DNA of 64,000 nucleotides from a virus (Duplodnaviria; Caudoviricetes): positions 32,001 to 96,000 of IMG/VR virus record IMGVR_UViG_3300021255_003284; one strand, written 5' to 3'. Position numbers and translations under genes: made by a program. Below, one piece after another: positions 14,247 to 52,612 of the stretch. The notes under the pieces are model-generated. The model had not been told where the DNA came from. It worked only from the letters and a program-made list of their open reading frames with translations, and ran no database searches. Every line of letters begins with the position of its first letter. Position 1 is the stretch's first letter.

Positions 14247-15572
14247 ATGTCGGAGAAAAGACGCGACAAAAGGGGGAGAATCTTACAGACAGGAGAACGT
14301 CAGCGCAGCGACGGTATGTATGAATATCGCTATATCGATGCGTCAGGCGTCAAGCGCAGCGTATACAGCTGGCTGCTTGTACCAAGCGACAAAGCGCCAA
14401 GCGGCAAGCGTGCCACCGAGGCGCTGCGCGATATGGAGCGGCGCATCGCGCGCGACCTCGCGGATGGGATCAATGAAAGCGCGCTCGGAAAGCAGACGCT
14501 CAACGAAGCGATCGAATCGTATTACGGCCGCCGCAGCGACATCAGGCCTGCAACGCGCCGCACATACAGCGTGCTGTATCGCCTTTATGTGCGCGACACG
14601 ATCGGCAGTAAGCCTGTGACGAAGATCTGTTTCACTGACGTACTCGGTCTGTACACGGAAATGTTGCTCAAGCGCGGCCTGAGTAGGAGCACGGTACAAT
14701 CACTCGACGCGATGATGAAGCCTGTATTCAACATGTATGTCCGCGCCGGTGCGATCCGTTCAAACCCTCTGAACGGGGTCATGCGCGACGTGGGCCGCAC
14801 GAAGGATAAGGTCGTACGCCATCGTAATGCGCTGACCAAAGACCAGCAGGACACACTTCTGAACTACTGCGTACACAGCAAGGTATTCGCATCAAGCCTT
14901 CCGATGATCATATTCTTGCTCGGTACCGGATGCAGATATGGCGAAGCTACCGCACTGACATGGGACGACTGTGACTTTGACACCGGATCCATCAGGATCC
15001 ACCGCACGCTGTCGTATCTTCCAGATGAAAACGGTCGTTGCAAGTGGATGCTCGGACCGACAAAGACTGCTCACAGTACGCGAGTTATCCCAATGATCGA
15101 AGATGTCAAGCGGGTGCTCCTCGATATAAAGGCGTCGCAAGAACTTAGCGGAAAGCGTGGTGCCGAGGTCGACGGTGTGATGAACTTCGTATTTCTGAAC
15201 AGCAATGGCAATAACCCATTGCAAAGCTGTTTTGATATGACATTGAAGAGCATCTGCGATTCATACAACCGAATCGAAACGACACTCGCCGCCGAACAGC
15301 ATCGCCAGCCGAATCTGCTTCCACGCATATCGGCACACATCTTCCGACATACGTTCTGCGTCAGACTGTGCGAGAACGGCGTTGACATCAAGATTGTTCA
15401 GGAGCTGATGGGGCATGCCAGTATCGGCGTCACGATGGATATCTACAATGAAGCCACGCTTGAACGCAAGCAATCCAGCCTCGTCTCGGTCGGCGACAAG
15501 CTCAACCTCAACATCGGCCTTGCATCGCAACATACCCACTTTTCTACCACTTCAGACCGCGAAGTTACGTGA
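14247..15572 (+). CDS. int: tyrosine integrase, Tn916-like
   Basis: Arm-binding N-terminus RRDKRGRIL..GE.QR.DG.Y.YRY; GCRYGE, HIFRHTF, MGHASIGVTMDIY. Confidence 0.94.
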   Translation: MSEKRRDKRGRILQTGERQRSDGMYEYRYIDASGVKRSVYSWLLVPSDKAPSGKRATEALRDMERRIARDLADGINESALGKQTLNEAIESYYGRRSDIRPATRRTYSVLYRLYVRDTIGSKPVTKICFTDVLGLYTEMLLKRGLSRSTVQSLDAMMKPVFNMYVRAGAIRSNPLNGVMRDVGRTKDKVVRHRNALTKDQQDTLLNYCVHSKVFASSLPMIIFLLGTGCRYGEATALTWDDCDFDTGSIRIHRTLSYLPDENGRCKWMLGPTKTAHSTRVIPMIEDVKRVLLDIKASQELSGKRGAEVDGVMNFVFLNSNGNNPLQSCFDMTLKSICDSYNRIETTLAAEQHRQPNLLPRISAHIFRHTFCVRLCENGVDIKIVQELMGHASIGVTMDIYNEATLERKQSSLVSVGDKLNLNIGLASQHTHFSTTSDREVT

Positions 15573-15928: not shown

Positions 15929-16948
15929 CTATACCGCCTCGATGTCCCCGACCTTTACAGCGGCCATCAGTTTGAACTTCCCATCTTCGCTCTCGCCAAG
16001 CGTTACCTTATCATCGTCAACAGAATATATCCGCCACGTCTTTCCAAGGACCCACGGCTGGATGCTGACGCCCGAGTAATATGCCGTACCTGTAATACGC
16101 ACGACCCGACCGGCAGAAATCACACCATCGTCAGAGGCGCTGCGTTCATCGTCGATCATGCCGAGCTCTCGCATCATGGCCATGTGCGTCTTTGCCCCAT
16201 ATTCGCCATCCGGGACTAATCCAGAGCGGGTCTGAAACGCTGCGACAAGCCTCATGATCTTTGGTGTGCATTCCACGCTATCACGTTTGGGACTCAGGCC
16301 AACCTTTGACAGGGCGAGGCATAGTTGCAGCACATCGTCCCCGGTCGTGCCCTCCGTCAGTGTGCGTGTGCCGAGCGTCGTGAACGGACTGCATTCGAGA
16401 CAGGCCGGCGCGTCTGTCGTTTCACCGTAGTCGACCCACGGCAAATCCATCCATTCCCGCCACGCCCCGTCTATAACGCGCGACTTTGCGCATCCGCCTT
16501 TATCTCTACTCCAGTAGACGATATGTCCGCCACCAACATATACGCCGATGAGCTTGTCATTAAGCAGCGCCACTCCCGGCCTCTCTGGCAGGGTGTCGAT
16601 CGGCATAGGGCACACACCGTATCTTTCCGCGCACAGTATCCTAAAAGCCGCGAGTGAAACATCCATCAAGCCATGCAATCCTGGAACCGCGTCGTGCGCC
16701 CCAAGGTCGGTCCACACAGCGCCCTTGATCGCGCCAATCGAATCGGAGCAGATTTGCCCCTCAATGATGTCCTTCTGCGCGTATTTACAAAACTTATCCG
16801 CATAAAAAGCACAATACGCGGCCTTAAGCTTATCCAGTAGTTGGGCAGTGCATCGGAAACATGAGGTGGCGTACCAGAACGGACGATGGAGCGCGGCCTG
16901 TTTGTTTAGCCACTCTGTGTATGCCGGGGCTGTAAAAATCTTTTTCAC
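15929..16948 (-). CDS. endolysin-like protein: degenerate NlpC/P60-CHAP-like domain, peptidoglycan-binding domain and SH3-like tail
   Basis: Paralogous to the second half of 24667-26220; GDDVLQL...FQ..SGL.PDG.YG.KT; probable GTG start with SD GGGAG. Confidence 0.65.
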   Translation of the reverse strand: MKKIFTAPAYTEWLNKQAALHRPFWYATSCFRCTAQLLDKLKAAYCAFYADKFCKYAQKDIIEGQICSDSIGAIKGAVWTDLGAHDAVPGLHGLMDVSLAAFRILCAERYGVCPMPIDTLPERPGVALLNDKLIGVYVGGGHIVYWSRDKGGCAKSRVIDGAWREWMDLPWVDYGETTDAPACLECSPFTTLGTRTLTEGTTGDDVLQLCLALSKVGLSPKRDSVECTPKIMRLVAAFQTRSGLVPDGEYGAKTHMAMMRELGMIDDERSASDDGVISAGRVVRITGTAYYSGVSIQPWVLGKTWRIYSVDDDKVTLGESEDGKFKLMAAVKVGDIEAV

Positions 16949-16984
16949 GAAAGTCTCCCGTTGACATACAGTCCGCAATATAGC

Positions 16985-17473
16985 TTAAGAGATTTCATCG
17001 GTCAATACGACCTGTTCCACATCTTCGCCTGTCCACTCGCCGGAGTGCGCACTGGTGAACCTGTACAGTATGCTGTCAAACATGACATAGTTGCCGGCCG
17101 AATACGACGCAGAAGAGTCGAACTCCCTCGCCAGCGCGCCGCGGATGTCGGCAAGGCTCCCTGCCGCAAAAGACATGAACATATTGAGCGTGTTCAGCTC
17201 ATTCCTGACGTATGCGAACGAATCGATTATATCGCGCGTAATGACAGCCGCTTCAACATCGTTCTCGTCCCAATCGCCGCTGTGATCGTTTTCAAAGCGA
17301 TACAGCACTCCCTCGTACCACACATGATCGTCCGTCTTGTATTCTGTGTCTTCGTCAAACTGTCCAGCGATGGCGTCAACGACGCCGGCTGGCACGTCGC
17401 CTCCTCCGCCGCCGACGACATAAGTGTTTTTCAACGCCGAAGACTTGACCTGTTTCAAATTGACCTTTGCCAT
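16985..17473 (-). CDS. protein with two aromatic-rich carbohydrate-binding-like repeats
   Basis: FDEDTEYKTDDHVWYEGVLYRF..DHSGDW and FDSSASYSAGNYVMFDSILYRF..AHSGEW. Confidence 0.6.
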   Translation of the reverse strand: MAKVNLKQVKSSALKNTYVVGGGGGDVPAGVVDAIAGQFDEDTEYKTDDHVWYEGVLYRFENDHSGDWDENDVEAAVITRDIIDSFAYVRNELNTLNMFMSFAAGSLADIRGALAREFDSSASYSAGNYVMFDSILYRFTSAHSGEWTGEDVEQVVLTDEIS

Positions 17474-17617
17474 CTAACCACCATCCTTCTATACAATATA
17501 ATTATCTCATTGCTGAGTGAAATATCTGTTTTTATAAGCTGCAAAATGCCGGTCCCGGCAATAACACCGGGGCCGGCGCGTCTTAATGTAATAAAGCCCG
17601 GCGCAGCCGGACTGTCC

Positions 17618-17845
17618 TTATTCTTCCGTTACTTCTGCGGGCGTTTCCGTATATCCGACGTTCGCCGAGTCAACCAGCCCTTCGCCGATGATATACGCCA
17701 TGGCCGCCGCACCAGCCATGATGATCGCAGTTACCTGAACCGCCGTTTCCTGTGAACCGTTGAATGCCAGCACGAGGTTCGTCACCAGCGCGCAGATCGC
17801 GGCCCAAAATTTTCTGCTTGTTAGTTTTCTCTTCCAATCGATCAT
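17618..17845 (-). CDS. phage holin
   Basis: MIDWKRKLTSRKFWAA..., two TM segments, YIIGEG.VD; SD GGGAGG. Confidence 0.8.
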   Translation of the reverse strand: MIDWKRKLTSRKFWAAICALVTNLVLAFNGSQETAVQVTAIIMAGAAAMAYIIGEGLVDSANVGYTETPAEVTEE

Positions 17846-17872
17846 GTTTGCGCCTCCCGACAATTCTTAGTA

Positions 17873-18196
17873 TCACCGGCGATCCCAATAAGGATCGATA
17901 TACTCCGCGGGATAATGGCCGGAATACCTGTCTTCGGGATAACCGCGGCTGATGAGTCGACCCATCATGGGACCGCGATACCGCGCGCCAGACATATTGC
18001 CGCCGCGTTCCTCACTGTCTTCAGCGCCGACCATCGCGTAATAAGTCTCGGCGCTCTTCAAGGCGTGAAACAGCGTCCTGACGCGTTCGGCGTCCTGCGA
18101 AGTCATTTCCTCTTCGTTAGCGTACTTCTTATTGAGCTTATCCAGCTCCTTGCACATGACGTGCTCAAGATTCTCAAAGCGCTTATGTTCTGCCAT
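17873..18196 (-). CDS. hypothetical protein (six-gene cluster, gene 6)
   Basis: Strong SD GAGGAGGAG; helical N-terminus and R/G/Y-rich tail. Confidence 0.7.
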   Translation of the reverse strand: MAEHKRFENLEHVMCKELDKLNKKYANEEEMTSQDAERVRTLFHALKSAETYYAMVGAEDSEERGGNMSGARYRGPMMGRLISRGYPEDRYSGHYPAEYIDPYWDRR

Positions 18197-18213
18197 TCCG
18201 AACTCCTCCTCTC

Positions 18214-18669
18214 TTACGCAATTCTGGTCACAGTCAGATTCGCGTTCTGAACGTTAATCGCTGTGGCGGCAGTTGCCGGCGTCGCGCCGAACGAAGCATT
18301 CTCAACAGAAATGTTGAAGCAGCAACCGCGAGGGATAGTAATGATAGCCGTGCTCGTCACGTTGAAGTACTCATCAACGGCCGCCGGCGTGACGATTGCC
18401 CTGCTGGTCTGGATCTGTTCCCCGTCCAGGGCAAGAGAAACAGCGATCGGGCCGGTAGTCCCATCGGTCGGCACCGCAATGTTCGCATTGAAAGTCACCT
18501 GATACCGCGCGAAACTCCCGCACGCGTTGTTTACGATACCGCGAAGAGTAAGAATGCCTGACCCATCCCTGTGGTATACATAACCACGATTGCAGGGGAT
18601 GGAGTTCTGCAATAATACGTTCTGGTTCGGCTGAACGAGCTGAACCGGATTGTATACATACTCAGCCAT
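18214..18669 (-). CDS. beta-rich hypothetical protein, possibly BclA-C/C1q-like (cluster gene 5)
   Basis: SD AAGGTGG; alternating beta-strand pattern; ends NANLTVTRIA. Confidence 0.65.
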   Translation of the reverse strand: MAEYVYNPVQLVQPNQNVLLQNSIPCNRGYVYHRDGSGILTLRGIVNNACGSFARYQVTFNANIAVPTDGTTGPIAVSLALDGEQIQTSRAIVTPAAVDEYFNVTSTAIITIPRGCCFNISVENASFGATPATAATAINVQNANLTVTRIA

Positions 18670-18681
18670 TATCGCACCACC

Positions 18682-19440
18682 TTACTGACCGCAGCCACAG
18701 CCGCCATACGGCTGGCAGCAATTCGGATTCTGCACGATATACGCGGGACGCGGAGTCGGAAGCACGTACTGCTCGACCTCGTTGGCCAGAGCGCGCTGAC
18801 CGGCCTGGATCGCGGCGGTCTGGACGTCCTGAGAAGCCTGGCCGCGGGCATACATCAGCTCAGAACGCAGCTGCGCGATGATGTCATTCTTCTGCTCGAT
18901 CTTGTCGTTGCACAGCTGATCCTTGATGGACTGGAACCCGTTGTTCATAGCCGTCATGATGTTGTTCGCATTCTGGGCGTCGGCCGTACGAGTGGCACAG
19001 GCTTCGGTCGCAAGGGCGAACTTGGTGTCAGCGGTCGCGGCGCGGTTGTCGCAGCAGCACTGCGCCATCTGGCTCTGCAGTGCGAACATCTGCTGCATGT
19101 CCGCCATCTGACGGGCGTTGGCAGCGATCTCGGCCTGAGAGAAACCGTTGGAAACGCCAGCGAAGCCATTGCACATGGCGGTCTGCACATTACCGAAGCC
19201 GTTCGTCACAGCATTCTGCACACCGTTGATGCCATTCATGACCGCGTTCTGGTCGAAACCGCGCTGCACGTCGTTGTTGGTGTTCATGCCGCCGTTCATG
19301 CCGCCCCAACCGTTGTTGAAGCACAGCAGGAGCAGAATGATCCACCAACCGTCGTTGCCGAAGAAACCATTGCCACCGTAATTGCCGTTACCGTAGGCGG
19401 GAGCGACGGGCATGTACATCGGGGTCGTGTTCTCAGTCAT
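18682..19440 (-). CDS. Gly/Asn-rich TM and coiled-coil protein with CCC motif (cluster gene 4)
   Basis: GNDGWWIILLLL, QCCCDNR, Cys-rich end CCQPYGGCGCG; strong codon bias. Confidence 0.75.
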   Translation of the reverse strand: MTENTTPMYMPVAPAYGNGNYGGNGFFGNDGWWIILLLLCFNNGWGGMNGGMNTNNDVQRGFDQNAVMNGINGVQNAVTNGFGNVQTAMCNGFAGVSNGFSQAEIAANARQMADMQQMFALQSQMAQCCCDNRAATADTKFALATEACATRTADAQNANNIMTAMNNGFQSIKDQLCNDKIEQKNDIIAQLRSELMYARGQASQDVQTAAIQAGQRALANEVEQYVLPTPRPAYIVQNPNCCQPYGGCGCGQ

Positions 19441-19532
19441 TCTCCATCATTCCTTTCTGTAGTTTGGTCGTTTTGTCAGCCTTTCCTTATATACAAAACC
19501 CGCCCCAGCGTGTGGAGCGGGAGTTTGTATCA

Positions 19533-19757
19533 TTATCGCCAGGCAAGCTGGCCGAGCAGCGGACCGATCTTTTGCAGCATCGGTTGACTTACCTGACCGG
19601 ACTGCAAGAGGTGCATGACGATCGTCCGTGAGTCATCAGCCATCCCGTCCGGGATGTTATATCCGGCTTGTCTGGCGATCGACAGGGGATCCATCTGGGT
19701 CGTGTTCTGTGTATTGTACATGTTCATGGTCAGGCTCTCATACAGAGGATTTGCCAT
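19533..19757 (-). CDS. hypothetical protein (cluster gene 3)
   Basis: MANPLY...LLQSGQVSQ; SD AAGGAGG. Confidence 0.65.
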   Translation of the reverse strand: MANPLYESLTMNMYNTQNTTQMDPLSIARQAGYNIPDGMADDSRTIVMHLLQSGQVSQPMLQKIGPLLGQLAWR

Positions 19758-20211
19758 TCCACTTTACCTCCTTGACACTATTGATTGCCGCCTTCAGTTC
19801 TTCCTTGAGGTGCTCAATGTCGTCCTTCGTAGCGTACTGGCTCATATCCTGAACCATCGCGGAAGGCGCTTCCGCGGCAGGCAGCATGGACACATTCTGG
19901 GTCGGCATGCTCTGCTCCATCGTATAGCAGACCTTCTGGATCGGATTGGGCATACCCATCTGGTTGATCGATTTCAAATAGATGACCGTATCGTTCGTAT
20001 CCCACAGCGGCATCGGTACGTTGGCGGGCCAGCCCTGCGGAAGCTGGTATGCCTTAGCACCAACTTCACCGTCGACCCATTCGATGCCGACCTTTTGCTG
20101 CTGAGGCTGCTGCATCGGCTGAGCATAAGAAGCGCCGTTGGACATGGGCGCATAGGCATAATTCATCGTGTTCGGATAGCCGTAGCCGATCATATTGTTG
20201 TAACCAGCCAT
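19738..20211 (-). CDS. Gln-rich hypothetical protein (cluster gene 2)
   Basis: WVDGEVGAKAY...LWD...IYLKS...GMP; C-terminal coiled coil. Confidence 0.7.
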   Translation of the reverse strand: MAGYNNMIGYGYPNTMNYAYAPMSNGASYAQPMQQPQQQKVGIEWVDGEVGAKAYQLPQGWPANVPMPLWDTNDTVIYLKSINQMGMPNPIQKVCYTMEQSMPTQNVSMLPAAEAPSAMVQDMSQYATKDDIEHLKEELKAAINSVKEVKWNGKSSV

Positions 20212-20212
20212 A

Positions 20213-20587
20213 TCAAATCACCCTCCAAAAATAACTCGCGACCTGATCTCCTGAGTTGTAGGAGTCATAGTACCACCCATCTATCACGGCGACAGCATGT
20301 GACCCGGTGCCGATGATATAGGTTCCTTTCGGAAACAGCTTGCAAAAATCGCGTATCGTAATACATTTGGGACATCTGTCAGGCAGGATGAATGGCTCAA
20401 ATCCCAGCCTGTACAAATACAGACCCCAGACCGCATCCGCATTGGGCATATCGTATTCTTCACGTCCGGTCAGATATATGTCGTCATATACATCGAGCCA
20501 CGATCGCCCCGTGGCGACGCTGATGGCTCGCACGACGCAGTCGCCCACATTCTTCCCGGCCGGATTGACATTCAACTTTTTCCACAT
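20213..20587 (-). CDS. putative papain-like/C39-type cysteine peptidase (cluster gene 1)
   Basis: NP.G..VGDCVVRAI...HAVAVIDG.YYDS gives a Cys-His-Asp set. Confidence 0.6.
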   Translation of the reverse strand: MWKKLNVNPAGKNVGDCVVRAISVATGRSWLDVYDDIYLTGREEYDMPNADAVWGLYLYRLGFEPFILPDRCPKCITIRDFCKLFPKGTYIIGTGSHAVAVIDGWYYDSYNSGDQVASYFWRVI

Positions 20588-20591
20588 TTCT

Positions 20592-20780
20592 TCATAGCAT
20601 GAATAACCGGTCGGTTTCAGCTCTCGTAAAAGGCATTCCTGGTCTATTCATCAGGATTACTGACGGCGTTCGCCGCATATAAACCATCTGTCGCTCACTG
20701 CCATAATGGGGTTGACGATCTCGCACCGCGTCCAAATGGTGTTCAGCGATCTGCTGATCAGTGAATAGCATTTTAACCAT
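20592..20780 (-). CDS. small hypothetical protein
   Basis: SD GAGGAG upstream; no recognisable motif. Confidence 0.4.
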   Translation of the reverse strand: MVKMLFTDQQIAEHHLDAVRDRQPHYGSERQMVYMRRTPSVILMNRPGMPFTRAETDRLFML

Positions 20781-20827
20781 TTAATCACTCTCCTCTTGCC
20801 GGCTTAAAGTGTTAAATAAGTCTGTAA

Positions 20828-23800
20828 TCAATTCTTGTGGCAAAAATATAAATCGTTATTCTTTGGATCATACATTGTTGGTTCTTTCCCACTGTTCACA
20901 TATTCGGCGACATTGATTCCTGCATACCTGCCAATTTCATTATACGCCGCCTGATAATAGTGATACTGATCTTTCATCAATCCACGGGATTTATATGATG
21001 TTAGAATCGTTGTTGCCATAACAGTATCGTCCCTGTCCTGTGCAATGTCAGTCTGGGCGTTGATGATGTCAGAATAATCATAATCCGTACCGTTAAATTC
21101 CCCAATCCGAATCAGGAAACACTTCTCAATCCCGGCATTTTTCATGGTCACCATAATATCATCAAAATACGTTTTATACTGGTCACCAGTTACCCCGAGC
21201 CTGGTATCACTTTCGCCCTGACACCACAGCATGAACTTATGTCGGATCGTGTATCCGTTGTTTGTCAGATACGTTACAGCATCAGACAACCGCTGGAGCG
21301 CGTCCGTCAGGTTTTCAGACCCTGTTATCCACGATTGGATGCCAGTGCCGCCTTCACTTGCGCTGATGCCAATAACAGGCACACCAGTGTGCATATAGTA
21401 TTCATTGACAAATGCAACGGCAAGCCCCCCGGTTTTGTTTCCGCCATCTGGTGCGCTGCCTCCGTCATCAATCCCGCCAGTTTTGTTTTCAAATTTGCCA
21501 AACGGCTCCGCCATTGGGTAAAGTCTTGTTTTGTCGGTTATAGCTCTAAATTCAAGGCCGGCACTCGGTATAATGTGTGGATATGATTCTGGCCATGTGC
21601 TGTTAGTCACTCCACGTCCAGCCATGTTTGACTGTCCTGCAAAAAGAAACAGATCAACAATTCTATTTCTGTCAATCACATAACAGCATTTATCTACATT
21701 GGCCGGGTCAACGTTGTTTGAATCGTTCGTTTTGTCCTTAAACTGCAATAGCACAACATAATTATTCATACCGTTGGTGTCAATAATCATTTTCCCGGTT
21801 GTGTTCCACCCCGTGTTTGGAACAAGCAACGTTTTCTTTGTCGCCTTGTCCACTATCATATATGTACCAGCATATACAGAATTATCAAAATACACTATAG
21901 CGCCATCATTCAACGTTATTTCACATAATGCCCGAATATTACTGTCAACAATCCCCGTGCTAGAAATAAACGTTTTCCCGGAAAACCGATACCCCTTGAC
22001 ATAATAATATTGGTTATCCGCATTAACAGGAGAAATATGTTTGACATCATACGCATTTTCTGTGAGCCGTTCATCAGTTTCCTGTTTCGTAAGGGTCGTC
22101 ATGATAATCGGCTTGGAGATTACATCTGTATATGATGCGCCGTTTGTGATCGAAAGGCGGACTATACATCCTGTCGCATTTGCAGATAACTTAACGGCCT
22201 TTGTGCCATACCCTGGAATGTTGGCGATTTCTGAGTAACTGCTCCCCACACGCTCATAAAGCCGGAAAATGATGTTGCTGTTAGCGCAATCATGCACCAA
22301 AAACAATTCATCGCCAGCACCGAATCCGCTCGGAAATGCGTTTGCATTATTATATATGTCGTAATGCGTTAAACCGCTCCCGGTAGATGAGCCGTTGATG
22401 GTGTAATTGCCCATTCCGTCCGCAACTATGGTAAAACTTCCCGGTCTGTACGTACCATTCGAAATAGGGGCATGATTCGCCGCGCCGTAAACATCAATGG
22501 CGCTCTTTAAGTCACCAACCTTCGCCGCATCTGCCGCCGCTCCCGCCACAGACAGCGTGTCGTCGACGACATATCCCGTAGCCGGATCGACGTGGTCATC
22601 GAGCCAATCGGACACAGCATCGCTGACGCCCGCCGTCAAATCAACGGGGTTGGGATTCTGCCGCCCGCCGTCGTTCGCCCACGATATAACGCCCGCACTC
22701 GATACAGCGGGAGTGAACGTCACGCCGTCATCGCCATCCGTGCCGCTCGCGCCATCGTTGATCGTGGCGACACCCGTGCCGTCGACACTGATCGTCGTGA
22801 TCGTGCCTGACTTGCTGGCTGTGATGACAGGCGTGTGACCGTCAGTGCCGTCCGCACCATCCTTCCCCGCTGGACCGCGCTGCCCTTCGGAGCCATCCAT
22901 CACATCGAAGCTATGTGCCCCTGTCGCGTCGGTGATCGTTACCCTGTGGCCGCCGGTAATATCCGTGATTGTAATGATAGGGGACACACCGTCCTGACCG
23001 GCCGGCCCAGCCGCTCCCTCCGGACCGGGCGGGCCGTCAACACCGTCGACGACGTCGGTCATCGTGATACCGTATAAGTCGGAAACCACGATGGTTGATG
23101 TGTTGCCTTCCTTTGTCACATATGCAATCGGGCTGAAGCCCTCCGGACCCGCCGGCCCAGTATCGCCTTTTTCGCCGCGCGCGCCCTGATCGCCGCGAAC
23201 ACCTCTCGGGCCGGTATCGCCCTTAACGCCCTGCAGCCCGCGTTCGCCGCGCGGCCCCTGTTCGCCCGTGTCGCCCTTCTCGCCGTGAGGGATACCGAAC
23301 GTAATAACGCCGGCGTTATAATCCGCCGTCGCAGCCGAACCCGGTTCAAGCGTGATCGCGTTGGCCGTAATACCGCGCAGTTCGTCGGCAAGCGCCTCTC
23401 GCGCTTCTTCTGCGGCCTGTCGCGCCGTCTCGTTTGTTTGCCTGGCGTTTTCATCTGACACGCGCCGCTCTTCCGCGCTGATGCGCTGCGCCTCTGCCGT
23501 TCGTCTCTCGGCTTCATCGCTGACGCGCAAAGCTTCACTGTCCCTCCGCTCGATTTCAGCTTCGACACGGCGTTCCTCAGCGGCCAGTCTGTCACCCTCG
23601 GAGGCGATGCGCATCGTCTCGCCGGATAGGCGCGCGTCTTCATTATCTTCGCGCTCGAGCTCTGCCGATACGCGCTCAGCTTCGCCGCTTATGCGTTCAG
23701 CCTCATTCTGTACGCGGATAACCTCTGCGCTGATTCGCGCTTCTTCGGCCGCGATCCGATCTTCTTCCCGCTGCAATCGATCCTCTTCCGCGCTCACGCG

Positions 23801-24220
23801 CACGCTCTCCGCACGGATAGCCTTTTCCATCTGCGCGTACATGATTTCAAAGGCGCTCTGCTGCTCGGGAGTAACCTCGTCATAATTTGGCTTCGGCCTC
23901 TCGTGCACGGGAATGACGGCTGTATAAGCTGTCTCGCCGTCGTCAAGATCGTCATGCAGATATACGAATGCGTAAACAGGCTTGCCGCTTTCAAACATGA
24001 TGTTCGGAACGACGACGCCGTCGCTCGTCCCTGTTTGCGATACGGCGTCCCCGCCCGTCGCGCTGTTCGAGAAATGCACCTCGTAGGCTTCTGGGAGCGA
24101 TATGCCGTCAAATCGAAGGACGATGCCGTAATCCCATTGCCAGAGGCTTCTGGCGACAGACGATGTCTTGCCCGCCCTGAATGACGCGGTCACGACATGT
24201 CTGAATTCCGCTTCCGCCAT
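20828..24220 (-). CDS. tail fibre/receptor-binding protein: BppU-like N-terminus, coiled coil, collagen-like repeats, C-terminal SASA/CE6-type SGNH acetylesterase
   Basis: LWQWDY...VHFSN; E..R heptad repeats; GXY triplets; GQSNM...QGESD...DQYH. Confidence 0.8.
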   Translation of the reverse strand: MAEAEFRHVVTASFRAGKTSSVARSLWQWDYGIVLRFDGISLPEAYEVHFSNSATGGDAVSQTGTSDGVVVPNIMFESGKPVYAFVYLHDDLDDGETAYTAVIPVHERPKPNYDEVTPEQQSAFEIMYAQMEKAIRAESVRVSAEEDRLQREEDRIAAEEARISAEVIRVQNEAERISGEAERVSAELEREDNEDARLSGETMRIASEGDRLAAEERRVEAEIERRDSEALRVSDEAERRTAEAQRISAEERRVSDENARQTNETARQAAEEAREALADELRGITANAITLEPGSAATADYNAGVITFGIPHGEKGDTGEQGPRGERGLQGVKGDTGPRGVRGDQGARGEKGDTGPAGPEGFSPIAYVTKEGNTSTIVVSDLYGITMTDVVDGVDGPPGPEGAAGPAGQDGVSPIITITDITGGHRVTITDATGAHSFDVMDGSEGQRGPAGKDGADGTDGHTPVITASKSGTITTISVDGTGVATINDGASGTDGDDGVTFTPAVSSAGVISWANDGGRQNPNPVDLTAGVSDAVSDWLDDHVDPATGYVVDDTLSVAGAAADAAKVGDLKSAIDVYGAANHAPISNGTYRPGSFTIVADGMGNYTINGSSTGSGLTHYDIYNNANAFPSGFGAGDELFLVHDCANSNIIFRLYERVGSSYSEIANIPGYGTKAVKLSANATGCIVRLSITNGASYTDVISKPIIMTTLTKQETDERLTENAYDVKHISPVNADNQYYYVKGYRFSGKTFISSTGIVDSNIRALCEITLNDGAIVYFDNSVYAGTYMIVDKATKKTLLVPNTGWNTTGKMIIDTNGMNNYVVLLQFKDKTNDSNNVDPANVDKCCYVIDRNRIVDLFLFAGQSNMAGRGVTNSTWPESYPHIIPSAGLEFRAITDKTRLYPMAEPFGKFENKTGGIDDGGSAPDGGNKTGGLAVAFVNEYYMHTGVPVIGISASEGGTGIQSWITGSENLTDALQRLSDAVTYLTNNGYTIRHKFMLWCQGESDTRLGVTGDQYKTYFDDIMVTMKNAGIEKCFLIRIGEFNGTDYDYSDIINAQTDIAQDRDDTVMATTILTSYKSRGLMKDQYHYYQAAYNEIGRYAGINVAEYVNSGKEPTMYDPKNNDLYFCHKN
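22492..22521. repeat. 30-bp junction repeat, copy 1 (encodes DLKSAID)
   Basis: 29/30 identical to 28011-28040; marks the switch from high to low GC within the gene. Confidence 0.85.
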
Positions 24221-24355: not shown

Positions 24356-24670
24356 TCAACGACCGCCTTCGCTTGCACCGATCTGGTCGATGCGCTTGTT
24401 GAGCCACACGATCTGCTCTTCGACCACAGGCATCCTGCGGGCGAAGTTGTTGTGCTCTCGCACTTCACGCGTCAACTCATCGATCTTCGTGTCGGTAACG
24501 GCCTGCCACTTTTCTATTTTATCGTCGAGCGCCTTGTCGGCCAGCTCGCTTTGCTTATCCAGCTTCGTATACAGATCTTTACTGTTTTGCTTTGATATAA
24601 ATATCTGTGATATGATCGCGCAGACTCCGGTGATCAGCGCGACAACAATCGCCTCTGTCACGCCCATCAT
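24356..24670 (-). CDS. holin-like membrane protein
   Basis: One N-terminal TM segment plus coiled coil; ATGA-coupled to the endolysin stop. Confidence 0.55.
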   Translation of the reverse strand: MMGVTEAIVVALITGVCAIISQIFISKQNSKDLYTKLDKQSELADKALDDKIEKWQAVTDTKIDELTREVREHNNFARRMPVVEEQIVWLNKRIDQIGASEGGR

Positions 24671-26220
24671 CCTTTCGCGATCTCACTTCTGGGGTACTTC
24701 GCCATCAACTCTTCTACCTCGGCCCGGCTCAGGTCGTATATGACCAGCGTATAGTACGCGGCCGGGTCGGCCGGCGCTGTCACGACCGGCTCATTGGGTT
24801 CGATGTTCGGAGTAGCGGCTGTGTCATTTTCGCCGTTCTCTTCATCCTGTTTCGGCATGGCCGCTTTGATCGCGGCGATCGTTGCCTTACCGGCGACACC
24901 GTCTGCTTCCAGATCATGATCTTTTTGAAACTGCGTGATCGCAGCGATCGTCTCGCCGCCGCAATCGCCGTCCGCGCCGTAACGCGGAAGAGCGTATCCA
25001 AGTGCGATCAGTGCCTCCTGAAGTTCTTTGACGTCAGACCCCTTAACGCCTTTCTTGATCGTCCTCGCCCCAAGCTTCGAGCCGCCGATCGTACCGATTC
25101 CGACGTATTCGATCATCGTGCTCGGCAGGCGTCCCCATTCGGTCCACGGGCCGTCCGTCACTTTATTGCGCACACAATCATACGCGAATCCTTTCATTTC
25201 AACCGTATAACCGCCGCCTACATATACGCCGATATGCCCGGGCTTATGCACGACCAACCCGGGGATGTCCGGGATCGTGCTGATCTGACCCGTCTCGTCG
25301 CACAGCGCGAACAGGCCGTCGGCGCTTCTGTCGGGGCAGCCGTTGCTCTGATACGTGTTCTTGCCATTGATGTTCCCGTTCTTCCAGAAAAATGATTTGA
25401 TCATTCCGACACAGTCGGCGCACATCTTCCCATTTGCGATATCCTTCATATACCCGCTCGTCCTGTCGGACGTATAATGTTCCGGATATTGCTGGCGCTT
25501 GCTGTTGTACAGTGACTGCGTACACTGGTAACCGCATGAACCGTACCAGTATACCCACGCGGCCTCATACACCTGTTCGCAATAATTGGCCAGCTCCAGA
25601 TTCGTAGGCATTCCTGTCTCCCCCTTTATAGCGCGATCATCGGCGAACCACTGAAGCACCCGCCCGCCGCGATACGCGTTCAGGTCGACATTGCCATCGA
25701 TACCGGCTACGCACCCTTTGCTCGTATACTGCCACAGGTCGCACGCCTGCGTCGGCGCGTATGATTCGTTGATCGTTCCGTCGTCCTTGCCCCAGCGCGG
25801 AATCCACACGATGTCACACAGCGCTTTGGCCGATCCGATCCAGTTGATATGAGGCTGACCGACATACATGCCGATCCTCTTTATGCCGCGTTCTCTGAGG
25901 CGCGTCAGAAACGCTATGCATATATCTTCCGTATTGGATGCCGTCTGCGCCTCATATTCGACATCCAATATATAGAATGCTGGCTTGCCCGCGCTCGCGC
26001 ACTGCACAAACCAATCGGCCTCGTCTCGCGCGGCCGCAGTGGATGACGCCTTGATGTAGTGATACACGCCGTACGGCAAACCGCACTGTGCGGCGTTCGT
26101 CTTATACTTGGCATCCTCTTTCATACCGACAGACGCACGGAATATGACCATCTCAAGCTCAGTCCGGGCCTTCGCCCAGTCAATGGTGCCGTTCCACGCG
26201 CTGATGTCCGCGATTTTCAT
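24667..26220 (-). CDS. endolysin: GH25 muramidase, NlpC/P60-CHAP-like peptidase and PG-binding domain
   Basis: DISAWNG, LDVE, WQYTS.G...GIDGNVDLN; DCVG...GHIGVY; GSDVKELQ..L...FQ....L.ADG.AG..T. Confidence 0.88.
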   Translation of the reverse strand: MKIADISAWNGTIDWAKARTELEMVIFRASVGMKEDAKYKTNAAQCGLPYGVYHYIKASSTAAARDEADWFVQCASAGKPAFYILDVEYEAQTASNTEDICIAFLTRLRERGIKRIGMYVGQPHINWIGSAKALCDIVWIPRWGKDDGTINESYAPTQACDLWQYTSKGCVAGIDGNVDLNAYRGGRVLQWFADDRAIKGETGMPTNLELANYCEQVYEAAWVYWYGSCGYQCTQSLYNSKRQQYPEHYTSDRTSGYMKDIANGKMCADCVGMIKSFFWKNGNINGKNTYQSNGCPDRSADGLFALCDETGQISTIPDIPGLVVHKPGHIGVYVGGGYTVEMKGFAYDCVRNKVTDGPWTEWGRLPSTMIEYVGIGTIGGSKLGARTIKKGVKGSDVKELQEALIALGYALPRYGADGDCGGETIAAITQFQKDHDLEADGVAGKATIAAIKAAMPKQDEENGENDTAATPNIEPNEPVVTAPADPAAYYTLVIYDLSRAEVEELMAKYPRSEIAKG

Positions 26221-26388
26221 TCGCCCGATCACCGCCTCTCCGTTTATATACCGGGCGACTTCTGCCGCCCGGCATTGATGACTCGGCTCGGCATGGCTAT
26301 GATTACGTAGTGATTGCGCCTCTTTTGTTGCGCTTACCTTTTAACCGCCCATGCTCTCGCCGCTTTACTGACTCAAAGTGTTATTTAA

Positions 26389-30938: not shown

Positions 30939-33758
30939 TTACGCGGGATCCAGCATCCTGACGCTGTTCGTATATTGCGTCGTGCCGTATGTACTTGTCA
31001 GTTTGCATCTGTATATATTTTTCCTTCTGCTCGTATTGAATTCTGTCTGCAGCGTCGCGGTCTTATTGCCCGTCGCGGTCGAATTGCTCCACGACGAACC
31101 GTCGTTGCTGCTGTATTGCCACTGGTAAGACTGGACCGCGCTGGCCGTCACAGAGAACGCGCACGCGTCGCCGTCTGAACCGGCCACGCTGACCGGCTGC
31201 GTCGTGATGACGAACGGCGTCTCCGTAAAGATCAGCGATAGGTTGCCGTTGCTCTGCGGCGTAAAGGCGTACGAACCAAGTATGAGCGTCGTGAGCACTT
31301 CGGCCTGATTGATATACAGCTTGTCGTTGCTCATGTACGCGATCTCCGAACCGTCCGACAAAAACGACAGCTTGTCATCGTCCATGCGCGTCCTGAACTT
31401 GCTCTCGGTCCGGCCGATCGTCAGACCATCCTGATCGAACTGCATGTATGTCTGAAATTCCTGAAGCGTTCCGTTCGTGTCGTCAAGCGCCTCGCTGAGC
31501 TGCTGCTGCGCGTTCGCTACCCGATTCACCTGCCATGTAAAGTCGCTTGCCGTCTGCTGCTGCTGCGTGCTGAGCGCCTCGAGCCCGGTCTCCAGCGCAC
31601 TCGTCGCTGCGGCGTTGCTCGCCACGTCGCCGCGCACGCTGTTGATTGCCGAGTTGACCGGACCGATGGCTGAACTGATGCGCCCGTCGACAACGGTGAA
31701 CATGTCGTTCCCTTCGTCGTCCAGTATCCTCAGCGCGTTGCCCATGATCAGATCGCCGATCAGTACGGATGCGTTGACGCCGTACACCGTTTCGCCGCCT
31801 ATGTTGATCTCGCCGATCGCGACCTTGCTGCTGTCCCACGCGTCGTCTGTCAGCACGATGCTCTTGCCGGTGATCTTGACCTGCCTGGGGTCGTATTCGC
31901 CGTTGGCAAGCCGCCTGCGTCCTGTATATCCAGAGCCGTCTATGATGACCTCTTCGTTTGTCGATGTCAGGGCCGCGCCCATCGTCAGATCGCGCGAAGC
32001 TTGCAGCGCCTCCCTGATCACATTCAGCTCGCCGTTCTTGATCGGATAAAGTATGTCCTTGACATAACTCAGCGTGTTCGCCGATCGGCTGACCGATCCA
32101 AGTACGTTGTCGAACAGCGACTTCTGATCGTAGCGGTTGAATCGGTTGCCAAACGTCATGTTGAGCGCGTGGTCGTCATAATTGACCGTGAAGTTCGACA
32201 AAAACAGCGCCGCCACATCGTCTCGCTCCAGCTCGACGTCGACCAGACAGCCCGTCTCGAGCTGCTCGGCCCACGCCTCGAACTCCTTGACGAACAGGAA
32301 GTTGTCCACGCTCACTGAAAACTCCTGACTCGGCCGCGATATCTTGCGCATCTGCAGCACGGCTCTGTCGTACAGGATCTTCATCTGTTCAAAGCGCTCG
32401 CTGTACGTCATGATATCGGTGAACGTCACGTACTCGTCAGAATAGTTACCCTCAAATATATAGTTCTGCAACTCGCCGAGTTCGTCGTCCGTAAAATGCT
32501 CGCTCAGCGCCAGATCGGCGTGTACCGCGTCGATCTGTTCCTTGATTGCCTCGATCTCTGCGTTAAGGTCGCTCAGATCGCTTTCTGCCTCAGCCAGCTC
32601 GTCCTGGCATACGCCGATCAACCTGTCGATCTCGTCGAGTGTATCGGCGATCTCCTGATAAACTTCGATGGCCGTGCCGCCGTTCTCGATGATGACCGTG
32701 TTGTAGCTGCCGACCATGTTCGTGTCGTCTGTCGCGACGATATTATCGCGGCAGCGCTGGTACATGGTCATCTGTATGTTGATCCGGCCGATCTCGCTGC
32801 GCAGGTTGCTCGCCTGTTCGAGCTTCTGGTAATACTCGAGATTCAGCGCGTAATAACCGTCGCGCGCCGCGTCGACCGCTGAAGCCCACGCGGTAACTTT
32901 CTCTCCGAGTTGCGGTGTCATCCAGTCAGTATAGTATCCAAAGTCGTAGATCGTGTTCGTGCCGAGCGGGTTGATGGCCGCGATCGTGACGTCCTCGTCG
33001 CCCATTACGGTCAGCGCCGTGTACAGATCCTCCGCAGACTCCGATATGTCGAGCGAATTGATGAGGTCGTCCTTCGTCAGATGTATGTTCGTCCGCCGCA
33101 CGTAATTGTTCTGGTCATATACGTTGATCGTCCTGTTGATGATGTCGAACAGGATGATACATTCGTACGCGTCCTGCACGTCGCTCAGCAAAAACGTCAG
33201 ACAGTTTGTTTCCGTATTGACATCTTCAAACGTCCGCCACTTCGACGCGACCGCCTCGTCCACATACCCGATCGTCCACAGCGGCAGTGTCTCTACGACC
33301 GTTTCGATAATGCCTTTCACAGGCTCGCCGCCTGCGGGCATCTGTGTCGTGAACGGGTACGTGCCGTCCGCGATATAAGGGACCATCTTTTGCTCGATCT
33401 CTATGTCGCACGACTCGGCGCGCACGTCCTTGTGGCTCTGCCCATTGTCGTAACCGTCTGTGACCTCGGTGATCATGAAAAAGCCGATACCTTCTACGAA
33501 AATGAGCCGCCTGTTCTGAAGCGACCGGTACAGATTGTACGCGTATGCGTTCTCGTCCGGATCGTCGTGTTTGACTCGGTTGACGCGCAGGTTCAATTCC
33601 GATGTCGCGTTGAAGTTGAGCGCCAGCTCTTCCGCTTCGTGGTCGCACAGTACGCCGACCACGTTGGTCAGGTGCCCGTCTGTGTATGTGCTGCCCGGAC
33701 TGCAAAGTGACATATTTGGCACTTCAAACCGGTTCAGGCTTGAATATCGCACGACCAT
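30939..33758 (-). CDS. tail hub/Tal-like protein with C-terminal Ig-like domain
   Basis: Follows Dit; INPLGTNTIYDF.Y; coiled coil; ITTQP...YQWQ...YRC Ig motif. Confidence 0.7.
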   Translation of the reverse strand: MVVRYSSLNRFEVPNMSLCSPGSTYTDGHLTNVVGVLCDHEAEELALNFNATSELNLRVNRVKHDDPDENAYAYNLYRSLQNRRLIFVEGIGFFMITEVTDGYDNGQSHKDVRAESCDIEIEQKMVPYIADGTYPFTTQMPAGGEPVKGIIETVVETLPLWTIGYVDEAVASKWRTFEDVNTETNCLTFLLSDVQDAYECIILFDIINRTINVYDQNNYVRRTNIHLTKDDLINSLDISESAEDLYTALTVMGDEDVTIAAINPLGTNTIYDFGYYTDWMTPQLGEKVTAWASAVDAARDGYYALNLEYYQKLEQASNLRSEIGRINIQMTMYQRCRDNIVATDDTNMVGSYNTVIIENGGTAIEVYQEIADTLDEIDRLIGVCQDELAEAESDLSDLNAEIEAIKEQIDAVHADLALSEHFTDDELGELQNYIFEGNYSDEYVTFTDIMTYSERFEQMKILYDRAVLQMRKISRPSQEFSVSVDNFLFVKEFEAWAEQLETGCLVDVELERDDVAALFLSNFTVNYDDHALNMTFGNRFNRYDQKSLFDNVLGSVSRSANTLSYVKDILYPIKNGELNVIREALQASRDLTMGAALTSTNEEVIIDGSGYTGRRRLANGEYDPRQVKITGKSIVLTDDAWDSSKVAIGEINIGGETVYGVNASVLIGDLIMGNALRILDDEGNDMFTVVDGRISSAIGPVNSAINSVRGDVASNAAATSALETGLEALSTQQQQTASDFTWQVNRVANAQQQLSEALDDTNGTLQEFQTYMQFDQDGLTIGRTESKFRTRMDDDKLSFLSDGSEIAYMSNDKLYINQAEVLTTLILGSYAFTPQSNGNLSLIFTETPFVITTQPVSVAGSDGDACAFSVTASAVQSYQWQYSSNDGSSWSNSTATGNKTATLQTEFNTSRRKNIYRCKLTSTYGTTQYTNSVRMLDPA

Positions 33759-51589: not shown

Positions 51590-52612
51590 TCAGGTGGTCT
51601 CGATCTCGTAACGGCCGATGCCGCCATTGCTGGCCAGCATGATGCCGGTACCCCAACGAGCACCATAGAAGTACTCATGAGTCAGGTCGGCGTTGAGGGT
51701 AGGATCGCGCATGATCATCAGCGGATCGCCTTCGTACACGACCTTGAGCGGTTTAGTCGGGCCGGCGACGATGGTCAGCATGTTGTCGTCGAGCACGAAA
51801 TCGGTCGTGCCGATCTTATGGCGCTGCGGCGTCACGACGACGGGCGAACCGAAGAAGTGGCCGTAGTAGCCGTTCAGGTACATATCTTCCTTGGCGTTGT
51901 CGCTGATCAGGGTCACGGAGGGCTGCAGATTGCGAACAGCCTTCTTGGTGCCGATGATGGTCGCGGTCTTGCCGCCGGCGGCCGCTTCGACATGAGCGAT
52001 CAGGTCGAGCAGGTCATCCTCATCGTAAGTGCCAGCGGCGGGGAAGTAGGTCGCGCCGCCCAGCTGATCAGCGGTCGCGCCGATCCACAGGGTGTAGATG
52101 TCGTTGAGCAGCTGCTGCCGGAACGACTCGGCGACCTTGGCGATCATCTGGTTGAAGTCCACACGGCCGGCCAGCACGCGGTTGAGCTCCTCATAGATGC
52201 GCACGGCCTTCATGTGGGTGGGGATGGGGGTTTCGGTGACGCCAGCCAGACGCTGACGACGGAGGCCCTGAGTGCCCTCGGCGACCTCGTCCACGACGAA
52301 CAGGTCGTTGTCCTCAACGAGGAACAGGTTCTGATCGCCCAGCGCGACGTTGCGGAATTCGACCAGAGTGTTAAAGAATTCATCGCCCTGCAGGCCTTCA
52401 ACGACGGTCTTGTCGAGGATCGTCTCGATCAGGGCAAACAGGCCGGCGCACTTGCCGTCGCGAATGTCCTTGTAGTTCAGCTTGGTGCTGCCGTTGTTGA
52501 TATCGACGAGCGCCTGACGAAGCACATCCTGAGACTGCTTCATAGAATAATTCTCGACCGTGCCGCGGTTGGCGTCAACGGCCAGCTTGACAATATCTTT
52601 CATATCAGCCAT
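51590..52612 (-). CDS. major capsid protein
   Basis: 340 aa, strong codon bias, SD GAGGAGGAG; order protease-decoration-capsid. Confidence 0.8.
   Translation of the reverse strand: MADMKDIVKLAVDANRGTVENYSMKQSQDVLRQALVDINNGSTKLNYKDIRDGKCAGLFALIETILDKTVVEGLQGDEFFNTLVEFRNVALGDQNLFLVEDNDLFVVDEVAEGTQGLRRQRLAGVTETPIPTHMKAVRIYEELNRVLAGRVDFNQMIAKVAESFRQQLLNDIYTLWIGATADQLGGATYFPAAGTYDEDDLLDLIAHVEAAAGGKTATIIGTKKAVRNLQPSVTLISDNAKEDMYLNGYYGHFFGSPVVVTPQRHKIGTTDFVLDDNMLTIVAGPTKPLKVVYEGDPLMIMRDPTLNADLTHEYFYGARWGTGIMLASNGGIGRYEIETT

Follow-up and report, generated by a model that had tools for sequence, protein, structure and literature searches.

A widespread, undescribed six-gene cassette of Bacillota phages that combines a peptidase-like protein with a predicted rod and a jelly-roll knob

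What do six small, tightly packed genes between a tail-fibre gene and a holin gene do for a phage? The question is raised by a stretch of 64,000 nucleotides (positions 32,001 to 96,000) of the 108 kb IMG/VR virus record IMGVR_UViG_3300021255_003284, from a member of the Caudoviricetes; this whole stretch is termed the window here. A preliminary description of the window had placed six co-oriented and coupled genes between the tail fibre and the holin, and their coordinates, sizes and compositions are borne out. The six open reading frames (ORFs), termed g1 to g6, are real, lie on the minus strand at 17873-20587 and are placed as described (Table 1). They form a real, very widespread and undescribed cassette, and the window carries the cysteine-peptidase version of what is a portable accessory cassette of Bacillota phages. 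As for its function, the reading proposed here, tentatively and with somewhat less than even confidence, is that the peptidase removes a leader from a rod protein (g4) and that a TNF-type knob (g5) is the partner of this rod.

The first evidence comes from conservation. Loci were collected with g4 as the seed from 74 viral contigs and 80 genome contigs, and their ORFs were searched with an iterated profile of each protein. The order g1-g2-g3-g4-g5-g6 is collinear in 75 of 155 loci, and most of the others are cut by contig ends. With g1 as the seed, at least 582 matches were found in IMG/VR; among the best 80 of these, all 62 loci with at least 3.5 kb of downstream sequence carry g4, and 54 are complete. 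The synteny check that had been proposed for these genes thus finds them co-conserved, far beyond chance. In addition, g2 adjoins g1 in 116 of the 155 loci, g3 is found in 109 and always immediately before g4, and g6 follows g5 in 135. The g4 profile matches 2,924 clusters at 50% identity (1,375 at E ≤ 1e-10) among 1.84 billion representatives searched. The best 150 of these representatives are all 200-367 residues long and free of fusions to other domains, and no single ORF joins g4 to g5 in the loci. Searches at 90% identity gave at least 8,000 candidates each for g4 and g5; the matches listed bore neither a name nor a Pfam domain. The cassette is common to thousands of gut and rumen phages.

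Phage contigs that bear the cassette range from ~40 kb to 150 kb, and most named hosts are Lachnospiraceae, Oscillospiraceae, Ruminococcus, Blautia, Butyrivibrio, Selenomonadales and Erysipelotrichaceae. The statement in the preliminary description that similar clusters occur in gut Clostridia phages is correct. A few metagenome-assembled genomes from other phyla also contain the cassette, which probably reflects binning errors. Sporulation is not known from several of these groups (Butyrivibrio, Ruminococcus, Blautia, Selenomonadales). Two phages have the cassette downstream of their lysins: Dulem virus 33 and the cultured Butyrivibrio phage Ceridwen, which was judged virulent by its authors (PMC7372960). 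Within the Butyrivibrio host family, g4 is present in only 3 of 301 sampled genomes. The genome of the cultured Butyrivibrio sp. INlla21 has two g4 copies ~80 kb apart on contig 22, which presumably sit in two prophages.

Known protein families do not place the cassette in a characterised pathway. Scans of the six proteins and of whole family alignments against Pfam, NCBIfam, PADLOC and PHROGs gave only PHROGs of unknown function and a sub-threshold match to BclA_C; no Pfam, NCBIfam or PADLOC family was matched at threshold. The PADLOC rows were at chance level (E 0.004-0.01) and fell on coiled-coil stretches, and no holin, endolysin or spanin family was matched by g1-g6 in Pfam, PHROGs or NCBIfam. 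The PHROG assignments are phrog_3754 for g1 (E 1.9e-26), phrog_21718 for g2 (E 2.9e-10), phrog_16490 for g4 (E 2e-26) and phrog_20016 for g5 (E 6.8e-44). There is no Pfam family match for g2 and no match for g6 in Pfam, PHROGs or NCBIfam, and in the ESM Atlas g4 and g2 fall in unnamed viral clusters only. The cassette is not described in the literature searched, which also yielded no assigned function and no system with this combination of parts.

The first gene, g1, had been called a Cys-His-Asp peptidase-like protein; its fold and the invariant residues C17, H97 and D108 agree with this. Across 44 homologues (32-77% identity), N8, D16, R20 and W30 are invariant as well. In the AlphaFold2 (AF2) model, which has a predicted local distance difference test score (pLDDT) of 95.3, Cys17 starts helix 1 and His97 and Asp108 lie on strands. 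In an exhaustive structural scan, nearly all top rows were clan CA cysteine peptidases, with Z scores of 6-7. The fold neighbours include AvrPphB, the C39 domains of PCAT1, LahT and ComA (Z 6.3-6.8), Josephins and staphopains, and also UfSP and clippase folds. Foldseek gave nothing significant for g1, sequence searches of the PDB with the single sequence and with a profile gave no match, and no longer fused forms of g1 were found.

Among these neighbours, the C39 domains (PCAT1, ComA, LahT150) invite the closest comparison. Like them, g1 is papain-like and falls in a size range of ~125-150 residues, with the Cys at the start of helix 1, the His and Asp on later strands and a polar residue upstream of the Cys. 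LahT has Cys27 on helix 1 and His101 and Asp117 on strands (PMC6363468), and the predicted layout of g1 appears similar. However, C39 domains belong to ATP-binding cassette (ABC) transporters, while g1 is a stand-alone protein in a phage context, and no ABC-transporter families were found among the sampled flanking genes of cassettes. The putative substrate of g1 also differs, as it is a rod protein of about 250 residues rather than a small peptide, and in some cassettes a mini zinc peptidase takes the place of g1.

This replacement is seen in cassettes without g1, which have a protein of 104-134 residues with invariant H-E-x-x-H and E-E motifs (the HExxH protein) directly after g6. Among loci with enough flank to be counted, which are not phylogenetically independent of each other, 82 have g1 and no HExxH protein, 13 have the HExxH protein and no g1, 10 have neither and one has both. 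The last is ambiguous, with an HExxH gene that is 2 kb away and twice as long. At least 3 of the 10 loci with neither are split cassettes, with g1-g3 7-8 kb upstream, and an HExxH-motif search of these 10 loci for a third peptidase type yielded one doubtful case. By sequence, the zinc-type loci form three groups or more. The HExxH protein weakly matches minigluzincins (MJ1213/projannalysin) and IrrE at E 0.03-0.16. It resembles minigluzincins and IrrE/ImmA in being an enzyme of ~110 residues with HExxH and a downstream Glu, but it lies at the 3′ end of the cassette and not beside a repressor, and the matches are below significance. Its gene is not in the window. The mutual exclusion of the two proteins is read as non-orthologous replacement. 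Since cassettes without g1 carry a zinc peptidase instead, proteolysis looks integral to the cassette. The suggestion of a protease-matured structure, made in the preliminary description, thereby gains support: the swap implies that the cassette needs a peptidase, g1 is a conserved clan CA-type protein, and the start of g4 would fit a double-glycine leader.

The candidate substrate, g4, has the Gly/Asn-rich segment, hydrophobic segment, CCC motif and Cys-rich tail that had been noted in it, and these are conserved across its family. Members share one order of elements: a short acidic start, a conserved peptide of 9-12 residues, a Gly/Asn-rich linker, a hydrophobic core, NGF repeats, long helices around a near-invariant C-C-C-x-N-R, and a tail with the pattern P-x3-V-x2-P-x2-C-x5-C-x-C. 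In the numbering of the window protein, W33, the CCC-x-N-R motif, C177, P232, P239, C242, C248 and C250 are near-invariant. The hydrophobic core has a median length of 10 residues (range 8-13; 130 distinct sequences), and in ~83% of these sequences no Lys or Arg occurs within 20 residues on either side of it.

The N-terminus of g4 has the look of a leader of the double-glycine type. The rule for C39 leaders is Leu at -12, Glu at -8, Leu at -7, Val at -4 and then Gly-Gly/Ala/Ser, to be recognized by a peptidase with its catalytic Cys on helix 1 and its His and Asp on strands (PMC6363468). Two types of start occur in the g4 family. Type A is M-P(-8)-V(-7)-A-P-A/M(-4)-Y-G(-2)-G/N(-1), represented in the window by M-P(-8)-V(-7)-A-P-A(-4)-Y-G(-2)-N(-1), and type B is L/M(-12)-S/T-A/P-A-D(-8)-V/I(-7)-A-A-V(-4)-x-G(-2)-N(-1). 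The two are homologous, and both are hydrophobic at -7 and -4 with Gly at -2. By these patterns, they account for 123 of 150 independent representatives at 50% identity, and most of the others are variants; the leaders of zinc-type cassettes are all of type B or a variant. Compared with the C39 rule, the putative g4 leaders would fit at -12, -7 and -4 (hydrophobic), at -8 (acidic) and at -2 (Gly), but they depart from it at -1.

A capsid-like codon bias had also been claimed for g4, and this holds weakly. All six Asn codons at 19261-19320 are AAC, and the GC content at third codon positions (GC3) is 0.79, compared to 0.81 for the major capsid gene, whose identification is based on 34% identity to annotated capsid genes, and 0.60-0.65 for g1, g5 and g6.

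The presumed partner of g4 is g5, for which the earlier assignment as a beta-sandwich protein is upheld by an AF2 model (pLDDT 91.8), which is a jelly roll, and by Foldseek. The best PDB matches are ExsFA/BxpB (7r1m, 8d02, 9h3d), followed by the C-terminal domains of F-BclA and BclA (9h38, 1wck), with E 5e-6 to 4e-4, probability 1.0 and template modelling (TM) scores of 0.6-0.7. The TNF ligands EDA and 4-1BBL, and also C1q, are among the fold matches. In BFVD, the closest structures are stand-alone gut-virome proteins of 130-145 residues (TM 0.76-0.82), and more distant matches are the heads of collagen-like fibres. Cys26 and the pair Cys116-Cys117 are conserved. Sequence searches of the PDB with g5, as a single sequence and as a profile, gave no match. 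Against the Pfam model BclA_C (PF18573), g5 scores 18 bits with a cut-off of 38, and a single one of the 68 family members has a match (E ≤ 0.01), which is below threshold; the relationship of g5 to BclA is therefore at the level of the fold. The idea that g5 is exceptionally conserved was rejected, since the identities of 80-92% belong to one subfamily and the mean column identity is 42% for g5, 39% for g1 and 36% for g4.

Two groups of known proteins offer parallels to this pairing. Like ExsFA/BxpB, BclA and F-BclA, g5 is a stand-alone TNF/C1q jelly roll of ~150 residues (TM 0.65-0.70). Trimers of ExsF bind a stalk protein by its Pro-rich N-terminal leader, and BclA loses its first 19 residues by cleavage (PMC12357932), an arrangement that parallels the leader-bearing stalk protein and the peptidase of the cassette. 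However, g5 shares just 9-15% identity with these proteins, has no collagen stalk in the same chain and no spore context, and its putative partner is a phage-encoded coiled-coil protein. TNF ligands consist of an anchor, a stalk and a trimeric head that is shed by a protease. By analogy to TNF ligands such as EDA and to C1q, the cassette too has an anchor-like hydrophobic segment, a stalk, a TNF-fold head and a dedicated protease, but its stalk and head are separate polypeptides and the resemblance is at the fold level. A fibre, one of the structures envisaged in the preliminary description, fits these folds if it bears a head: g4 would supply the helical rod, with its clusters of Cys, and g5 a TNF/C1q/ExsFA-like knob. 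The conserved cysteines may point to disulfide links.

The cassette is divided into two units, g1-g3 and g4-g6, by a terminator-like hairpin. The g3-g4 gap in the window is 92 nucleotides, whereas the five other junctions, including that of g6 with the holin gene, are overlaps or gaps of at most 17 nucleotides (gaps of 1 for g1-g2, 12 for g4-g5 and 17 for g5-g6; an overlap of 20 for g2-g3). In related loci, the median g3-g4 gap is 80 nucleotides, compared to -8 to +14 for other junctions. The stem-loop that had been noted in this gap is real (RNA fold of -24.5 kcal/mol, z -2.2). Its A-tract pairs with a T-run, and its form, an A-tract, a GC stem and a T-run directly after g3, is that of an intrinsic terminator. 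It marks an operon boundary, not high expression as had been suggested. Across 66 distinct g3-g4 junctions, a hairpin with z < -1 is found in 34 and an AT box in 50. Moreover, all insertions of 4-8 kb (eight loci), some of which contain DUF7211 proteins, fall at this junction.

In many related loci (L001, L005, L044, L053, L059, L070, L076), the g3-g4 gap contains a first hairpin with a loop palindrome (GTGCGCA, GTGCAC or TTGCAA), then TATATAA, and then a second hairpin flanked by ACCGAC and CGCTAACC before the ribosome-binding site of g4. Such a gap may hold an operator and promoter followed by a structured leader. The window hairpin differs from these in being GC-rich and terminator-like. 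An Rfam scan of 17000-21500 gave no match. Two phages have endonuclease genes within the cassette: in Ceridwen an HNH-type endonuclease gene lies between g5 and g6 (7130-7924 of L001), and in Dulem virus 33 an annotated endonuclease gene lies between g3 and g4 (5262-5813 of L002).

The other three proteins, which are of low complexity yet conserved, are known from their family alignments. The g2 family has the core V-G-E-x-G-A-x-x-Y-P-V-x-P-N-S...Y-x-K..D..G. In the g3 family, 4 of 45 homologues match the prophage tape-measure family TMP_2 of Pfam (best E 6e-6), and the g3 of the window does not. Members of the g6 family have a helix, a variable Y/S/G/R region with a conserved R-R-D-S-M-G-R-Y, and a second, C-terminal helix; this last helix is present in most members and missing from the window protein. 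Gene content and surroundings vary as well. In other phages, holins and endolysins are the nearest genes upstream, and integrases, terminases or regulators lie downstream. About 39 loci have a 70-residue helix-turn-helix (HTH) gene of the sigma-region-4/GerE-like type before g1, and 32 have a seventh gene of ~110 residues after g6; the window has neither. The cassette is also mosaic: with Ceridwen, the window shares 82% identity in g5 and just 35-43% in g1, g2 and g4. The closest overall relative (g1 77%, g2 71%, g4 61%, g6 65%) is without any g5.

In the mechanism proposed here, g1-g3 would be the processing or handling unit, made up of the C39-like peptidase and two low-complexity small proteins, and g4-g6 would be the working part. 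g4 would be made as a pre-protein, and g1 would cut off its leader of ~18 residues after Gly17-Asn18, as the zinc peptidase would do where g1 is absent. This cleavage would bare a Gly-rich segment with a hydrophobic plug of 10 residues. The remainder of g4 would form a helical rod, probably trimeric, that is stapled by the CCC motif and the C-terminal Cys clusters, and a g5 trimer would dock on it as a TNF/C1q-type knob, with g2, g3 and g6 as helpers or scaffolds. The product would be an abundant non-virion rod-and-knob complex of late lytic infection, associated with the membrane or envelope via the hydrophobic plug. We infer that g4 is the substrate and, likewise, where it is cut, how many chains assemble, that g4 touches g5, that a membrane is involved and when in infection this happens. 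Taken together, the virulence ascribed to Ceridwen, the scarcity of g4 in the sampled genomes of its host family, the capsid-like GC3 of g4 and the host groups not known as sporulators favour a product that is abundant and belongs to the lytic cycle, and they argue against roles on the spore surface and in lysogenic conversion.

A bolder form of this reading, which is decidedly unlikely, is that the complex is a phage machine of a new kind, in which a trimeric rod, armed by a protease, inserts into a membrane and carries a detachable TNF-type targeting head. Loss of the leader would then expose a Gly-rich hydrophobic N-terminal peptide beside heptad helices and a Cys cluster, a layout that recalls, by analogy, class I viral fusion proteins.

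Several observations weigh against leader removal from a rod that is partnered by a knob. For the peptidase, Z scores of 6-7 are middling as structural scores. Pfam, including Peptidase_C39 and Peptidase_C39_2, gave no match for g1 at E ≤ 1 and none for the 44 members at E ≤ 0.1. Relatives of g1 with 33-41% identity stand alone, some of them in early regions and with no g2-g6 nearby, in Tsamsa-like phages of Bacillus, Geobacillus phage GBK2 and Lak phages; the g1 fold may therefore serve other targets. For the leader, position -1 of g4 is mostly Asn (type B) or ambiguous (type A), in contrast to the Gly, Ala or Ser of the C39 rule. NCBIfam leader models do not match g4, and the tables of leader types were partly anchored by the analyst's own patterns. 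Mapped on gene trees, the leader type changes 11 times for g1, 5 times for g3 and 12 times each for g5 and g6. The hydrophobic core of g4 does not reach the length of a classical transmembrane helix and is not flanked by Lys or Arg. Finally, g5 is missing from ~8% of cassettes, and no signal peptide was seen on g5 or g6 by eye, with no predictor run. Co-adaptation of g1 with the leader is not claimed, as the g1 tree tracks leader type no better than those of other genes. The tree that tracks it most closely is that of g3 (5 changes compared to 21 in shuffles), which may reflect linkage or function.

Of the other explanations, an accessory fibre of the virion survives best, and it is unlikely. 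Here g4 would be a stalk mounted on the tail or neck and g5 the knob at its far end that binds a receptor or glycan, with g1 and g6 as maturation or assembly factors. The window cassette comes directly after the tail-fibre gene, the codon use of g4 is capsid-like, and the g5 fold heads cyanophage tail fibres, giant-virus collagen-like fibres and the fibritin whisker. In split cassettes, moreover, g4-g6 follow DUF7211 proteins, which may be fibre-like. However, many loci lie instead between holins or endolysins upstream and integrases or terminases downstream, and ~39 have an HTH regulator of their own. The cassette is found on contigs of 40, 108 and 150 kb and therefore has no fixed docking partner, and a Gly-flanked hydrophobic plug would be odd in a soluble fibre.

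It is quite improbable that the two units are unrelated neighbours, with g1-g3 as a host-directed or anti-defence peptidase module and g4-g6 as a separate structural module. The terminator-like hairpin, the position of all long insertions at the g3-g4 junction and three split loci, in which g4-g6 lie 7-8 kb from g1-g3, would fit such a division. So would the Josephin, UfSP and clippase folds among the neighbours of g1, and its standalone relatives in Tsamsa-like phages, which adjoin kinase and ocr-like genes. What speaks against it is that cassette-type g1 with enough flank is followed by g4 in every case (62 of 62, among the best 80 of at least 582 matches). Furthermore, cassettes without g1 gain another peptidase at the opposite end, which is hard to explain unless the peptidase serves g4-g6.

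A bacteriocin-like, membrane-attacking protein that is released by lysis, with g4 as a pro-toxin that loses its leader and g5 directing it to other cells, is very doubtful. A double-glycine-type leader together with a C39-like peptidase is a hallmark of class II bacteriocin maturation, the exposed N-terminus of g4 would be Gly-rich and hydrophobic, and the cassette adjoins lysis genes. However, g4 consists mostly of a long helical rod and its charge is acidic to neutral, unlike the known bacteriocins, which are small and cationic. The sampled flanks showed neither an ABC exporter nor a recognisable immunity gene, and the benefit to a virulent phage is not obvious.

A surface structure expressed from the prophage, for lysogenic conversion or superinfection exclusion, is highly improbable. 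Several loci do occupy a moron-like slot between lysis genes and an integrase, often with their own HTH regulator, and in the window an integrase gene lies ~2.3 kb past g6. However, the window has no cassette regulator and its genes run on from the tail fibre; g4 is very common in viromes, yet is found in 3 of 301 sampled host-family genomes; the cassette is present in a phage judged virulent; and g5 and g6 show no export signal by eye. Scarcely credible is an exosporium-like structure added to host spores, as proposed in the preliminary description, because the exosporium proteins ExsFA/BxpB and BclA as best structural matches of g5, proteins rich in Cys, Gly, Tyr and Gln that recall spore coat proteins, and GerE-like regulators with some cassettes are outweighed by a carrier judged virulent (Ceridwen), several host groups not known as sporulators, a g5 family that fails the BclA_C sequence model (one sub-threshold match) and has no collagen stalk, and an NCBIfam scan, expected to hold an exosporium-leader model, without a match on g4.

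The cassette is set in the following surroundings in the window. In minus-strand order, the genes are the tail fibre, an orphan ORF, g1-g6, the holin, a protein with two CBM5/12 carbohydrate-binding modules and a lysin-like protein; an integrase gene follows on the opposite strand (Table 1). That the cassette is nested inside the lysis region was loosely put, since the holin is indeed downstream but no lysis gene lies upstream in the window. The orphan ORF has a good ribosome-binding site and occupies the slot held by the small HTH regulator in other cassettes; none of the 155 related loci contains a homologue of it, and it matches no family. In the lysin-like protein, Pfam shows PG_binding_1 only and no catalytic domain, and a paralogous region, 29% identical (E 7e-26), is found in a tail-region protein. 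The possibility that g1 is the missing catalytic half of this lysin-like protein was rejected, because g1 co-occurs with complete endolysins elsewhere. The major capsid protein is ~34% identical to those of Tsamsa-like Bacillus phages, which carry a stand-alone g1-like peptidase in an early region.

Table 1. Cassette genes, their sub-features and other genes of the window
Feature	Position	Strand	Size or residues	Remarks
g1	20213-20587	-	124 residues	stand-alone minimal papain-fold (clan CA, C39-like) cysteine peptidase, by model and residues
g2	19738-20211	-	157 residues	Q/P/Y-rich head, conserved beta-type core of ~50 residues, C-terminal helix
g3	19533-19757	-	74 residues	small helical Q/N/M-rich protein with repeated N-P motifs
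g3-g4 gap hairpin	19491-19530 (core 19499-19521)	-		terminator-like, then TATATAA box; consensus scan and RNA fold
g4	18682-19440	-	252 residues	predicted rod protein with leader, plug, CCC and Pro/Cys tail
g4 putative leader	19387-19440	-	residues 1-18	followed by Gly/Asn-rich linker
g4 hydrophobic plug	19318-19347	-	W32-F41	followed by NGF repeats
g4 CCC	19051-19059	-	residues 128-130	within helical rod
g4 Pro/Cys tail		-	residues 232-252	C-terminal
g5	18214-18669	-	151 residues	stand-alone TNF/C1q-type jelly-roll knob, by model
g6	17873-18196	-	107 residues	N-terminal helix, R/G/Y/S-rich disordered tail
Holin	17618-17863	-		downstream flank; phrog_297, E 3.8e-7
CBM5/12 protein	16985-17473	-	162 residues	between holin and lysin-like gene
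Lysin-like protein	15929-16978	-	349 residues	near holin
Integrase	14247-15572	opposite		
Orphan ORF	20592-20780	-	62 residues	between tail fibre and g1
Tail fibre (collagen/SGNH)	20828-24220	-	1130 residues	upstream flank
Tail-region protein	24667-26232	-	521 residues	region paralogous to lysin-like protein
Major capsid protein	51590-52612	-		

With 1,375 g4 clusters and at least 8,000 candidates at 90% identity, the cassette ranks with the commoner gene sets of gut and rumen phages that lack an explanation. It comprises six protein families without a name or a tested function, and its function, if solved, would annotate at least four PHROG families (3754, 21718, 16490 and 20016). If the protease-armed, membrane-inserting rod described above were real, Bacillota phages would act on the cell envelope at the end of infection, by disrupting it, by aiding release from debris or by attacking neighbouring cells, and either a cysteine or a zinc enzyme could serve as the arming peptidase. 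More generally, the cassette may reveal a late step of infection in phages of anaerobic Bacillota that lies outside the holin-endolysin picture.

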